A stretch of 64,000 nucleotides of DNA from Candidatus Babelota bacterium (lineage in GTDB: Bacteria; Babelota; Babeliae; Babelales; RVW-14). Position numbers and translations under genes: made by a program. Positions 20,441-24,345 of this stretch are shown piece after piece. The notes below the pieces were generated by a model, which was not told the origin of the DNA, ran no database searches, and worked only from the letters and a program-made list of their open reading frames with translations. Position 1 is the first letter of the stretch, and each line of letters starts with the position of its first letter. The DNA lies in assembly GCA_018266175.1 (NCBI GenBank), contig JAFEAY010000003.1, forward strand, positions 168,642 through 232,641. Direction: 5' to 3'.

Positions 20441-20481
20441 TTTAAATATTATTTACATTTGTAATTATCGTTCGGCATAAT
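20441..20481 (+). promoter_or_regulatory. Conserved AT-rich promoter motif (copy 1) for the polybasic-tail protein gene
   Basis: tttaaatattaTTTACAtttgtaattatcgttcggCATAAT: -35 TTTACA, 18-nt spacer, -10 CATAAT. It matches the motifs at 21565, 23141, 52447 and 58935. Confidence 0.5.
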
Positions 20482-20565
20482 GAATTTACGGAATATCATG
20501 AACGGCTTCATGGTACTCCACTATAAATTATTTAAAACGTTGCCCAATAAGGGGAGAATCCTATT

Positions 20566-21435
20566 ATGAAGTTCTCTTGGAATAATATGCGATCAGCACT
20601 CCTGATCACGCTTGGCCTCACAATGGTCCTTATGGGTATTGCATGGGCAATGACTCCTGCACCCGCATCACCGACCGCTTCTGCAGATCCTGCGGCTTTT
20701 GCGGCAACGCTTGCTCAAGCGGCTGCTCTATCAGCCCCAGCTCCTGCTGCACCAGCACCTTTGATTGCATCAGCGCCACCAGCAGCGCCTACTGGCATGG
20801 GAACGACGACAGGAGCAACAGGATTTCTTCCTTCAAATACAGCAGCACCAGCTGCTGGTACTGACACTGAAATTGTCGAAGAAGAAATAACCGAAGAAGT
20901 GGATTCTCCAACGCAGCCTGGTAAAAAAATTAAACGTAAACGTAGGGTCAAACGTCGCGTAAAACGTCGTGGAAAAAAAGCTGGCAAACGTGGCGGCATG
21001 AAGTTTCCAAAGCGGAAAAAAAGCAAAAGTGCTGCTCCTCTTGGTATGCAAAGAGGTAAACATCCAAGCCAGATGAAGCCCCAAGAACGTCTCCAACGCA
21101 GAAATCAACTTGTTCGAGCACAACAAAAACGAGCACTGATGCGTATACAAAGACAACCAACAAGCAACTTAGCAAAATTGCGAGCTCGACAAATGCAGCA
21201 ACTTCCTCCTGGAGCAAAAAAATATGGCTCGAGAAGAACCGTTGGCATGACCCCTGGTAAGAGTCGAGGCAAAAAAGGAGCTCAACGAAAAGGTAAGGGC
21301 AACAAAGCAGGTGGAGCTTCTGCTCAGGAAGCGCAAGCTGACACACCAGCTGATTCAGCAGAACAAACCGATTCGTCAGCCGAAGCACCGGCTGCAACAG
21401 ATGACGGATCTACAGAACCAGCTCCTGAGTCATAA
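20566..21435 (+). CDS. Exported Ala/Pro-rich protein with polybasic (K/R-rich) C-terminal half
   Basis: Signal or anchor segment ALLITLGLTMVLMGIAWA, an Ala/Pro-rich stretch, an acidic patch EIVEEEITEE, then KKIKRKRRVKRRVKRRGKKAGKRGG and further K/R-rich sequence. GGGGAG precedes the ATG. Confidence 0.65.
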   Translation: MKFSWNNMRSALLITLGLTMVLMGIAWAMTPAPASPTASADPAAFAATLAQAAALSAPAPAAPAPLIASAPPAAPTGMGTTTGATGFLPSNTAAPAAGTDTEIVEEEITEEVDSPTQPGKKIKRKRRVKRRVKRRGKKAGKRGGMKFPKRKKSKSAAPLGMQRGKHPSQMKPQERLQRRNQLVRAQQKRALMRIQRQPTSNLAKLRARQMQQLPPGAKKYGSRRTVGMTPGKSRGKKGAQRKGKGNKAGGASAQEAQADTPADSAEQTDSSAEAPAATDDGSTEPAPES

Positions 21436-21499
21436 TCTGTAATTCAAAATAATGGTGCAATGTTATTTTGCACATCGCATCTTACAAAGCTTATTGAAC

Positions 21500-21537
21500 A
21501 AGGCGCCTGAAAATACTGGGCGCCTTCTCTTTTTTAT
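21500..21537 (+). terminator. Rho-independent terminator (GGCGCC stem)
   Basis: aaggcgcc-tgaaaatactg-ggcgcctt followed by ctcttttttat. Confidence 0.7.
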
Positions 21538-21564
21538 ACAACCAAAACAGTTAAAATCTTAAAT

Positions 21565-21608
21565 TATTTTTTTAAATTATTTCAATTTGAAATTACTCTT
21601 GGTATCCT
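21565..21608 (+). promoter_or_regulatory. Conserved AT-rich promoter motif (copy 2) for the RING-H2 protein gene
   Basis: attatttttttaaattaTTTCAAtttgaaattactcttggTATCCT: -35 at 21580-21585, 17-nt spacer, -10 at 21603-21608. Confidence 0.5.
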
Positions 21609-21669
21609 AAATATAACAGGTGTATTGTATTAAAAGTAAAATCGCACTATTTAAAAAAGGAGAAAGACT

Positions 21670-23043: not shown

Positions 23044-23067
23044 AGCACTATAAGCAACTGAATATAT

Positions 23068-23105
23068 GGCGCCTGGGGAGCTGACTCCAGGCGCCTTTGT
23101 TTTCT
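23068..23105 (+). terminator. Rho-independent terminator (GGCGCC stem)
   Basis: ggcgcctgg-ggagctgact-ccaggcgcc followed by tttgttttc. Confidence 0.7.
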
Positions 23106-23140
23106 AGATGAAACATAGCGGCTCAACATGATTCAATGTG

Positions 23141-23190
23141 AAATTATTTTTTTTAAAATATTTACATTTGAAATTAAAGTTTAGTAGGCT
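23141..23190 (+). promoter_or_regulatory. Conserved AT-rich promoter motif (copy 3)
   Basis: aaattattttttttaaaataTTTACAtttgaaattaaagtttagTAGGCT: -35 at 23161-23166, 18-nt spacer, -10 at 23185-23190. Confidence 0.5.
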
Positions 23191-23307
23191 AAGAATAACA
23201 AGAAAGCTTTTAAGTACTCCAAACTTATGATGCTCATATTGAACCGAAGAAGAAGAACAATAGGAAAATAAATAGGTCGTTAAAAACCAAAAATAGGAGA
23301 TAGAACT

Positions 23308-24234
23308 ATGAATAAAATATCCAAGAAGCTGCTGCTCTGCGCACTGCTTGTCGGTGGAATTATTGAGAGCAATATTAATGCAGGGACAATCAGCGATGAC
23401 ACAGACTTAAGCGGCGTTGCCAACTTATTCAGTGACGAAGAAAAACGAGCTGAACGCGCTGCTAAAAAAGCTGCCGCCGAAGAAGATAACATTGATTACG
23501 ACACAAGTAGCTTGTACGGCGAAGATGCCAGCGTTGGTGAAACAGAAGAAACTGCTGCAATTCCTACTCCACCACCGCTTCCAGCAAGCAAGGCTGATAG
23601 TAAAGAAGAATCTGCGGTGACTAAGGGAGCTCGCAAGAGACGCAAGCGAGTTGCGGGTAAAAGTCGTAAAAAAGCTGCTCGGTCAAAATCTCGTTCAAAA
23701 TCTAATCGTAAAGGCAAAGAAGGCTCTAAGTTTGAAAAGCGCCGTGTTTCACGAAGAGAAAGCTTTAAAAAAGCAAAGTCTACACGTAAAAGCAGAACAG
23801 CTCGTCCACGTCGTCAGCCTAAAGGCGTAACACAAACAGCTGATAACCAAGGACGCGTAAAGTCATGGAAGTCTGGTCACAAAAAAACCCAAGCTTCTCG
23901 CAAAAAGCGTTTTACGCCTAAAACCTCTGCTCAACGTGCTACGATAGCACGAAGGCAAGCCGAAAAGCTGCTTGATAAGAGCCCATGGACCGCTCGTGAT
24001 TATAAGAGAGCACAGAGCTTGCGCAAAACATTAGACAAATTGCTTCCTCGTCCATACAGTCTTGCTGATTACAAGTTCTTTGGTGAACTTGACGCTGAAA
24101 TAAGTGCATATGAGGGGACACCTCAAGAAGACAGTCGATTTACCCGATCTATCAAACGAAGCGGCAGACGCTTAAAACATGTCGATGCACCGGTTGAAAG
24201 AACAGGCTACAAACTTGGAAAAGTAGTCGACTAA
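23308..24234 (+). CDS. Exported protein with long polybasic K/R/S-rich region
   Basis: Signal peptide KKLLLCALLVGGIIESNINA, an acidic N-terminal part, then GARKRRKRVAGKSRKKAARSKSRSKSNRKGKEGSKFEKRRVSRRESFKKAKSTRKSRTARPRRQPK. AGGAGA precedes the ATG. Confidence 0.65.
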   Translation: MNKISKKLLLCALLVGGIIESNINAGTISDDTDLSGVANLFSDEEKRAERAAKKAAAEEDNIDYDTSSLYGEDASVGETEETAAIPTPPPLPASKADSKEESAVTKGARKRRKRVAGKSRKKAARSKSRSKSNRKGKEGSKFEKRRVSRRESFKKAKSTRKSRTARPRRQPKGVTQTADNQGRVKSWKSGHKKTQASRKKRFTPKTSAQRATIARRQAEKLLDKSPWTARDYKRAQSLRKTLDKLLPRPYSLADYKFFGELDAEISAYEGTPQEDSRFTRSIKRSGRRLKHVDAPVERTGYKLGKVVD

Positions 24235-24285
24235 AAAGCTTTTACTCAAACTTTGAAGTTAAACTTAATTTTAAACCAAACTTAC

Positions 24286-24345
24286 GGCGCCTCTCCATCC
24301 CACACTCTCCTCCCCAAGGAGCATGGAAGGCGCCTTTTCTTTTTT
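24286..24345. terminator. Hairpin terminator between convergent genes (GGCGCC stem)
   Basis: ggcgcctctccat...catggaaggcgcc followed by ttttctttttt, lying between the stop at 24234 (+) and the nth stop at 24344 (-). Confidence 0.55.

Follow-up and report, generated by a model that had tools for sequence, protein, structure and literature searches.

Why would a parasite devote three consecutive genes to proteins that each join an export signal to a long stretch dominated by lysine and arginine? The question is raised by a stretch of 64,000 nucleotides (nt), hereinafter the window, from a genome of Candidatus Dependentiae (TM6), a phylum of almost entirely uncultured protist parasites. An original prediction on this DNA had singled out three open reading frames (ORFs), at 20566-21435, 21670-23043 and 23308-24234, quoted peptides from them, and proposed that each combines a leader with a polybasic segment. 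The ORFs and the peptides are all present at these positions, and the architecture is borne out, with 21-23 lysine or arginine residues (K/R) per 40 amino acids (aa) and a net charge of +31 to +38. The same prediction assigned the proteins a host-directed role, which for the middle one, ORF2, is strongly supported by features that it had overlooked: a RING-H2 domain, a capping-protein-interaction (CPI) motif, and ankyrin or J-domain payloads in orthologues. We tentatively favour the explanation that the trio are Sec-exported, largely disordered, polycationic proteins that would act on the host, with their basic regions on polyanionic surfaces, and give it slightly less than an even chance.

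20566-21435, forward strand: ORF1, 289 aa, with a signal peptide at aa 1-28 (ending in AWA before M) and a polybasic region at aa 120-252 (nt 20923-21321)
21670-23043, forward strand: ORF2, 457 aa, modular and effector-like, with a signal peptide at aa 1-30
23308-24234, forward strand: ORF3, 308 aa, with a signal peptide at aa 1-25, a polybasic region at aa 106-205 (nt 23623-23922) and a basic C-terminus

ORF2 and its exchangeable middle part

An AlphaFold model of ORF2, built from an 8-sequence alignment, comprises a leader helix (aa 1-33), a helical hairpin (aa 37-142), a disordered linker (aa 144-214), a small folded domain (aa 215-270), a second helical hairpin (aa 281-378) and, finally, a disordered polybasic tail (aa 382-440 in the model). 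Compared with the PDB using Foldseek, the helical hairpins produced only generic coiled-coil, BAR and Vipp1-like matches, at E above 0.04. Three elements are superimposed on this scheme:

22141-22200, forward strand: CPI-like motif, aa 158-177, LSHLTKSRPMGPKGRRLPSR, within the disordered linker
22303-22446, forward strand: RING-H2 domain, aa 212-259
22813-23019, forward strand: polybasic tail rich in Lys, Arg and Ser, aa 382-450, predicted to be disordered and present in all variants of the locus

The RING-H2 domain, to which the small folded domain of the model corresponds, scores 41.5 bits with the PF13639 (zf-RING_2) profile, the curated gathering threshold of which is 27.3 (E=1.6e-10, aa 210-260), and all eight zinc ligands (C212, C215, C231, H233, H236, C239, C256 and C259) are in place, with a spacing matched by a regular expression. 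The best PDB matches are Arkadia, RNF165, RNF126 and RNF38 (E ~1e-6). RING-E2 structures define the Ile that follows the first Cys, the Trp of the central helix, the Pro before the eighth Cys and the Arg after it as E2-contact or linchpin positions, and I214, W243, P257 and R260 of ORF2 occupy these positions in alignments with Arkadia and ARK2C, which have identical residues there. Thus, ORF2 shares with the eukaryotic RING-H2 E3 ligases Arkadia/RNF111, RNF165, RNF126 and RNF38 both the C3H2C3 pattern and these Ile, Trp, Pro and Arg positions; in contrast to them, it is bacterial, the domain lies behind a signal peptide, and the flanking domains are unrelated. Judging from its sequence, ORF2 contains a complete eukaryote-type RING-H2 domain and is a predicted ligase.

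The linker, in which the predicted local distance difference test score (pLDDT) is below 50 over aa 144-214, contains the CPI motif LSHLTKSRPMGPKGRRLP. When this region was compared with all PDB chains using phmmer, only three matches were obtained at E<=10 (E 0.028-0.39), namely the CapZ-bound peptide of the Legionella pneumophila protein RavB (9BLI chain C), which is the top match, CD2AP (3AA6) and a CD2AP/twinfilin chimera (7DS8). The RavB-type motif L(X)6R(X)6RRLP fits aa 158-175 of ORF2 exactly, and the Arg residues of this motif in RavB contact CapZ-beta (9BLI; bioRxiv 10.1101/2025.03.20.644192). Moreover, ORF2 also contains the eukaryotic half of the motif, LxHxTxxRP (L158, H160, T162, R165 and P166). 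Both patterns have a chance frequency of ~1e-7 to 4e-7 per residue, and neither recurs in the six-frame ORFs of the window or in the background set (386,674 residues, also given as 430,000). A PDB search that started from the CD2AP peptide did not retrieve the other CPI families, and because of this no formal CPI profile is available.

The gene order ORF1 - ORF2 variant - ORF3 - nth - xerC is kept in all fetched relatives. Among the ORF2 variants, the signal peptide and the C-terminal hairpin and tail are constant, and the middle part differs:

This window (P0001): coiled coil, CPI motif and RING
P0003: coiled coil and CPI motif
P0006: ankyrin and CPI motif
P0004: ankyrin-like and RING
P0007: ankyrin-like only
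P0005: RING only
P0008: coiled coil, RING and J-domain (DnaJ)

Of all these parts, the distant variant P0008 has kept only the signal peptide, the RING and a tail that is polybasic but unrelated in sequence. In DNA comparisons, the homology to the relative L004, which is 75-85% identical to the window, breaks over 21744-22587; the ankyrin variant L127 has an isolated 72-nt island of homology at the CPI motif (22141-22212), and homology to L128 restarts at the RING domain (22289).

The ratio of nonsynonymous to synonymous substitution rates (dN/dS), computed against L004, is 0.11 for the basic segment of ORF1, 0.12 for the tail of ORF2 and 0.38 for the basic segment of ORF3; the ORF2 signal peptide stands at 0.12, the N-terminal spacers at 0.22-0.41, and the housekeeping neighbours XerC and Nth at 0.025 and 0.059, respectively. 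Because the ratios for the basic regions are as low as 0.11-0.38, these regions are coding and under purifying selection, and the genes of the trio evolve faster than their housekeeping neighbours.

The frame shared by the three genes

The other two proteins of the trio carry the basic segment in different surroundings. In ORF1, an Ala/Pro-rich spacer (aa 29-98) and an acidic block (aa 99-113) precede the basic region, which is followed by an acidic C-terminus. ORF3 has an acidic region with PPPLP (aa 26-104) and, beyond its basic segment, a three-helix bundle (aa 207-269, nt 23926-24114) that AlphaFold models at pLDDT ~90 and for which Foldseek found nothing in the PDB below E=2; several basic stretches, e.g., RPRRQPKGV and KSWKSGHKKTQASRKKR of ORF3, are conserved residue for residue. 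Hence the polybasic "tails" of the original prediction are truly C-terminal in ORF2 and in a further polybasic protein, ORF4 (42950-43588), whereas in ORF1 and ORF3 the segments are internal. Orthologues of ORF1 are present in L004, L127 and L129, the last being the ENA contig from which the unmasked sequence of L005 was taken; in the NCBI assembly of L005 (GCA_964429765.1), N runs at 6519-7130 and 9736-10575 mask the basic region of the ORF1 orthologue and a portion of nth.

ORF1-3 and ORF4 are the four K/R-densest ORFs of the window (21-24 K/R per 40 aa; net charges +31, +35, +38 and +54), against a background of six-frame ORFs from unrelated metagenome loci (~386,000 residues) that includes just three ORFs reaching 18 K/R per 40. 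In a heuristic scan, the N-termini of ORF1-4 combine a basic n-region with ~12 hydrophobic core residues, followed by AxA-type cleavage sites that have small residues at -3/-1, and such signal-peptide-like N-termini are kept in every orthologue of ORF1-4; by these features, the export signals look genuine. All five polybasic ORFs of the window, including the one described below, begin in this manner, compared with ~36% of all ORFs. A lipoprotein reading of ORF2 and ORF3 was also considered and ruled out because Leu directly precedes the Cys (position -1), which misfits a lipobox.

The likeness to histone H1, protamine or SR proteins proposed earlier proved to be one of composition only, with zero family matches in Pfam or NCBIfam. 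No histone-like or nucleoid family profile in either collection matched the polybasic proteins at E<=1; ORF1, ORF3, ORF4 and the fifth ORF had no meaningful match of any kind in Pfam or NCBIfam, the latter yielding compositional noise only. Among ORF1-4, BLASTP detected nothing but the similarity between the signal peptides of ORF2 and ORF3 (MNKRYKLLLKRLLLCSLLAGS vs MNKISKKLLLCALLVGG) and compositional matches, and hhalign found zero matches between the family alignments; by these sequence comparisons, the three genes are not paralogues. The families are also small: among 5.8 billion proteins, close relatives number 7 for ORF2, 4 for ORF3 and 2 for ORF4. A profile search with the ORF3 family over 1.84 billion representatives gave only 3 real relatives, a scan of GTDB genomes with the ORF2 family alignment returned only the already-known locus, and a scan of viral contigs produced no matches.

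What the three genes do have in common is the arrangement of elements around them:

20436-20481, forward strand: ORF1 promoter block, with an A/T tract, -35 TTTACA (20452-20457), the conserved spacer TTTGTAATTA and -10 CATAAT (20476-20481)
20499-20514, forward strand: hairpin/palindrome CATGAA-CGGC-TTCATG in the 5' leader of ORF1
21500-21536, forward strand: intrinsic terminator 1, GGCGCC stems and T-run (-15.2 kcal/mol, z -3.6)
21569-21608, forward strand: ORF2 promoter block, with a T-run and AAA, -35 TTTCAA (21580-21585), spacer TTTGAAATTA and candidate -10 TATCCT (21603-21608)
23068-23105, forward strand: intrinsic terminator 2, GGCGCC stems and T-run (-26.1 kcal/mol, z -6.0)
23146-23190, forward strand: ORF3 promoter block, with a T-run and AAAA, -35 TTTACA (23161-23166), spacer TTTGAAATTA and candidate -10 TAGGCT (23185-23190)
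24286-24345, forward strand: intrinsic terminator 3, GGCGCC stems and T-run (-23.6 kcal/mol, z -4.9), convergent with nth

The motif ATTT[AC][CA]ATTTG[TA]AATTA, preceded by a T-run and AAA, has exactly three copies in the 64 kb (20451, 21579 and 23160), one upstream of each gene of the trio. A consensus scan combined with inspection by eye places a -35-like TTTACA or TTTCAA in it, followed after 17-18 nt by CATAAT, TATCCT or TAGGCT; the ORF1 promoter scores 10/12 in the consensus scan, and the candidate -10 of ORF2 was picked by eye from the alignment. The ORF1 block is invariant in L004, L127 and L129, and a 27-bp block at the ORF3 promoter is invariant across four loci. L004 contains the block three times; in the more distant L005/L129 it is found upstream of ORF1 and ORF3, the 27-bp stretch remaining invariant amid diverged intergenic DNA. 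Because this conservation reaches beyond the -35 hexamer, it suggests an operator or an extended promoter, and the three genes are probably switched on together via the common block.

The hexanucleotide GGCGCC occurs eight times in the window, and six of the eight occurrences form the paired stems of the three terminators, each followed by a T-run; the stem of terminator 2 has undergone compensatory changes in L129. Thus, the proposal that the trio consists of single-gene units stands insofar as every gene comes with a promoter-like block and a terminator of its own, both conserved in relatives, but it does not extend to L005/L129, in which the gap between ORF1 and ORF2 is 50 bp and contains neither element, so that the single-gene layout is typical rather than universal. 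The hairpin in the ORF1 leader is kept in four loci, including L004, L127 and L129, the last showing a single compensatory pair. An upstream ORF overlapping the ORF1 start was considered as a conserved feature and ruled out: it ranges from 10 to 23 codons and varies in sequence, the hairpin alone being kept. A metagenome scan for a wider regulon with the promoter block TATTTACATTTGWAATT gave 120 single matches, evidently due to chance, none of which adjoin signal-peptide-plus-polybasic genes of this lineage.

Two further ORFs of the window combine a signal-peptide-like N-terminus with a basic region:

42950-43588, forward strand: ORF4, 212 aa, with a signal peptide that ends in a lipobox-like LVSGS followed by Cys21, and a Lys-rich tail at aa ~128-203
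27022-27834, reverse strand: fifth polybasic ORF, 270 aa, with a basic block at aa 40-90 right after the leader (18 K/R per 40 aa)

The original prediction counted ORF4 as a fourth member of the set, located between outer membrane protein genes. It is alike in architecture only, however: it lacks the promoter motif and the GGCGCC terminator and possesses the lipobox-like Cys21, which is invariant in 3 homologues (the fit to the lipobox pattern was judged by eye). The start at 42950 has a good Shine-Dalgarno sequence, and the homologues begin at the same Met; a HDHDH stretch, two CPLxKK repeats and a Trp-rich SKSWWSFWG block precede the Lys-rich tail, the length of which varies through indels. 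From these sequence features, ORF4 is probably an envelope lipoprotein outside the trio. The supposed outer membrane protein genes (40151-41665 and 43753-45159, both on the forward strand) have no Pfam match; their products are paralogous signal-peptide proteins of ~470-500 aa that end in Phe, and ORF4 sits between these two paralogues and a toxin-antitoxin-like pair of Gp49 and helix-turn-helix (HTH) genes. Toxin-antitoxin-like pairs are found at 41814-42561 (forward strand) and 49289-49991 (reverse strand) and are mutually similar; in the first of them, matches to the Gp49-like family (PF05973) and to a Cro/C1-type HTH family were confirmed. The fifth polybasic ORF is conserved in L004 (7191-8021) and L127 (7263-8093).

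A proposed host-acting role and the alternatives

The explanation that we favour starts from ORF2, which would have to face the host cytoplasm because RING-H2, CPI, ankyrin and J-domains need eukaryotic cytosolic partners. The leader and the hairpin/tail are taken to be export and localisation parts because they remain constant while the payloads change, so that ORF2 would provide a constant frame, consisting of the N-terminal signal peptide and the C-terminal hairpin/tail, in which eukaryote-mimicking payload cassettes are exchanged between strains. The CPI motif would bind the host actin capping protein as do RavB, MavH, CD2AP and CARMIL, and would either recruit or uncap; the RING-H2 domain would engage an E2 of the host to attach ubiquitin to proteins in its vicinity. 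The polybasic segments would act as a localisation module through an electrostatic hold on a polyanionic surface, which in the case of the ORF2 tail would most likely be that of acidic host membranes at the parasite or in its vicinity. We propose acidic membranes because in the CPI proteins that have been characterised, the motif comes together with a membrane-targeting module: in MavH, CPI is coupled to a membrane-targeting domain that binds phosphatidylinositol 3-phosphate (PI3P) (PMC10381072), in CD2AP, CARMIL1 and CKIP-1 it is paired with membrane-targeting domains (bioRxiv 10.1101/2025.03.20.644192), and in vertebrate CARMIL it is followed by an unstructured basic-hydrophobic membrane-binding domain (PMC13208823). 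As polycationic proteins, ORF1 and ORF3 would be expressed together with ORF2 and employ the same targeting principle. A bolder version can be formulated, which we consider unlikely when taken as a whole: the signal peptide and the hairpin/tail would be a dedicated delivery and anchoring scaffold for a bacterium that relies on Sec and the type II secretion system (T2SS) only, one hypervariable locus would swap host-mimicking cassettes, the CPI motif would bring a RING-H2 E3 onto capping protein independently of the Legionella mimics, and ORF1 and ORF3 would be its co-regulated polycationic partners.

Several observations weigh against a host-acting role. ORF2 departs from the strict eukaryotic CPI consensus, LxHxTxxRPK(6x)P (PMC10381072), in that the Lys is replaced by M167 and the distal Pro lies at +8 instead of +7, and the E-values of the PDB matches are marginal (0.03-0.4) because the motif is just 20 residues long. 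A RING domain, with its zinc and Cys residues, would need to cross the periplasm, and the helical parts gave no informative match in Foldseek. ORF1 and ORF3 have no eukaryote-like domain and would be effectors by association, i.e., through the frame, synteny and architecture that they share with ORF2. Export across both bacterial membranes, delivery into the host cytosol and the binding partner of the tail are steps that we infer. Furthermore, the ORF2 tail has few hydrophobic residues and is more similar to nuclear localisation signals (NLSs) or nucleolar signals than to a basic-hydrophobic membrane motif; its composition would suit nuclear or nucleolar targeting equally well.

This last point is the basis of a rival explanation, under which the trio would be host-delivered nucleomodulins, with basic segments that double as NLS or nucleolar signals and nucleic-acid-binding regions and payloads that act in the nucleus or nucleolus. 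The many K-K/R-x-K/R and bipartite-type clusters in tails with very few hydrophobic residues fit such a role, and there is precedent in CT311 of Chlamydia trachomatis, an obligate intracellular bacterium, in which NLSs made of basic clusters direct a Sec-dependent protein to the host nucleus (PMC3662721); a Liberibacter example is also listed in the literature. However, CT311 has two short clusters within 43 residues and no homology to the trio, the segments of which span 70-135 aa with a net charge above +30, far beyond what an NLS needs; no DNA-binding, RNA-binding or histone family was matched in Pfam or NCBIfam; and CPI, the only identifiable binding motif, points to capping protein, which is cytoplasmic or membrane-associated. 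On balance, a nuclear role is conceivable and rather improbable. A comparable probability attaches to the proposal that these are surface-retained polycationic proteins or adhesins, which would stick to the bacterium's own lipopolysaccharide or to anionic glycans and lipids of the protist and either display domains or mediate attachment and uptake. As in the mycobacterial protein HBHA, with its Lys-rich, polyanion-binding tail (PMC3293801), a hydrophobic N-terminus is followed by a coiled coil, a linker and a cationic tail; a constant signal peptide and C-terminal module around a variable "passenger" is reminiscent of surface-display systems, the Ala/Pro-rich spacer of ORF1 is typical of envelope-spanning linkers, and ORF4, with its lipobox-like Cys, lies among putative envelope genes. 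Nevertheless, HBHA binds extracellular heparan sulfate and lacks eukaryote-like payloads, no sequence homology to HBHA or to any adhesin family in Pfam or NCBIfam was detected, and RING-H2, CPI, J-domain and ankyrin payloads, which need cytosolic host partners, would be senseless on an extracellular face.

Two other explanations account for less of the evidence. We regard it as improbable that the polybasic tail is itself a secretion or translocation signal, whether for an export machine or for cell-penetrating passage across the outer, vacuolar or host membrane. In support of this idea, the tail persists in the distant RING and DnaJ variant P0008, in which other sequence stands in place of the remaining C-terminal module, KRKRRVKRRVKRR of ORF1 is similar to the Tat peptide, and positively charged C-termini serve as signals on some substrates of type IV secretion systems (T4SSs), such as Bartonella Bep and Agrobacterium Vir proteins. 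However, the basic segment is internal in ORF1 and ORF3, and Lys-rich sequences are poor cell-penetrating peptides. Moreover, T2SS is the only secretion system reported for Dependentiae, along with type IV pilus components (PMC4776705; PMC4378268), and family annotation of the ORFs in the 64-kb window revealed no T4SS genes. Finally, these could be bacterial nucleoid-, ribosome- or RNA-associated basic proteins with mispredicted signal peptides, comparable to the chlamydial Hc1 and Hc2. The composition resembles that of histone H1 and of Hc2, a Lys-rich protein that varies in length via Lys-rich repeats (PMC2848022), and a dedicated common promoter could mark a developmental stage. In contrast to the trio, however, Hc1 and Hc2 are cytoplasmic, have no signal peptide and no eukaryote-like payloads, and show no homology to these proteins; no histone-like family was matched in Pfam or NCBIfam. 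Because tripartite, signal-peptide-like N-termini are conserved in every orthologue (dN/dS of 0.12 for the ORF2 signal peptide) and the RING-H2, CPI, ankyrin and J-domain payloads are eukaryote-directed, with no partners in the bacterial cytoplasm, a nucleoid or ribosome role is very improbable.

Genomic setting, known parallels and implications

The assignment of the window to Dependentiae is illustrated by one of its housekeeping genes:

16455-19127: MutS, identical to MBS1987516.1 of Candidatus Dependentiae bacterium, which is encoded on a 461-kb contig

Near-identical contigs are found in three metagenome samples. Apart from housekeeping genes (those for ThrRS, MutS, Cmk, Nth, XerC, a MurC-like protein, FtsK and UppP), the window contains many family-less ORFs; no RNA family of Rfam was detected anywhere in it. 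Signal-peptide-like N-termini are present in ~16 of the 45 ORFs (~36%), a richness that fits the published Dependentiae genomes, in which signal peptides are carried by 44% of the coding sequences of Chromulinavorax and by 79 of the 126 ankyrin proteins of Babela (PMC6561590; PMC4378268; PMC4776705). In Dependentiae, many ankyrin proteins and other eukaryote-like proteins begin with a signal peptide, and the accepted view takes them to be effectors secreted into the host, with which a host-facing ORF2 would agree (PMC4378268; PMC6561590; PMC4776705). In the neighbourhood of the array, a PP2C-type phosphatase is encoded directly upstream (19250-20257, forward strand); its N-terminus is hydrophobic and signal-peptide-like (MINQSLFFIAFFAITFSTSTITPLSLVHG), and it may be an exported eukaryote-type enzyme. 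Further genes encode a heparinase II/III-like protein, 5 kb downstream (29140-31080, forward strand) and lacking an obvious signal peptide, and a eukaryote-like leucine-rich repeat (LRR) protein of 981 aa with a hydrophobic N-terminus at 222-3167 (forward strand). In the distant relative L129, three WD40/beta-propeller proteins adjoin the array (17407-21134).

Among characterised proteins, RavB and MavH of Legionella pneumophila offer the nearest bacterial parallel to ORF2, being from amoeba-adapted intracellular bacteria and possessing a short CPI motif in a disordered region. They belong to an unrelated phylum, nevertheless, and have no homology to ORF2 outside the motif; they are Dot/Icm T4SS substrates without a signal peptide, whereas ORF2 has a Sec-type leader, and ORF2, in which CPI is predicted, has RING-H2 and a polybasic tail where the Legionella proteins have WH2 or PI3P-binding domains. 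Compared with the eukaryotic CPI proteins (CD2AP, CARMIL, CKIP-1 and twinfilin), the ORF2 motif resembles the CD2AP peptide in 3AA6, and the combination of CPI with a polybasic tail would be functionally analogous to that of CPI with the basic domain in CARMIL; unlike in these proteins, the tail of ORF2 lies 200 residues from the motif and contains few hydrophobic residues, and PH, LRR or SH3 domains are absent. Within the same phylum, Babela massiliensis and Chromulinavorax destructans have proteins that combine a Sec leader with ankyrin, RING or ubiquitin-system domains, for which secretion into the host via Sec and T2SS has been proposed; these papers do not describe polybasic segments, a CPI motif or a cassette-swapping locus (PMC6561590; PMC4378268), and no description of polybasic segments was found in the Dependentiae literature searched. 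The families of the present locus have a mere 3-12 relatives among billions of proteins. Thus, secreted eukaryote-like Dependentiae proteins, including one RING protein, are already known, as is CPI mimicry in MavH (2023) and RavB (2025). What appears to be new is the combination of CPI and RING-H2 behind a Sec leader, the constant leader-and-tail frame with payload cassettes exchanged at one syntenic locus, and the occurrence of three non-homologous polybasic exported proteins with a common, conserved promoter and terminator frame.

Dependentiae are widespread, almost entirely uncultured protist parasites, and this locus provides handles on how they might manipulate their hosts without a type III secretion system or a T4SS, namely a predicted bacterial RING-H2 ligase, a CPI motif and a leader-and-tail frame that stays constant around exchangeable payloads. 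A bacterial CPI motif has so far been reported only for two Legionella effectors (2023, 2025); if ORF2 does bind capping protein, amoeba parasites of unrelated phyla would have converged on CPI mimicry. Furthermore, if the polybasic module is a targeting or delivery device, it would supply a sequence signature for mining effectors from Dependentiae metagenomes, which would be of use in a phylum where ~40% of the proteins carry signal peptides and homology is uninformative.

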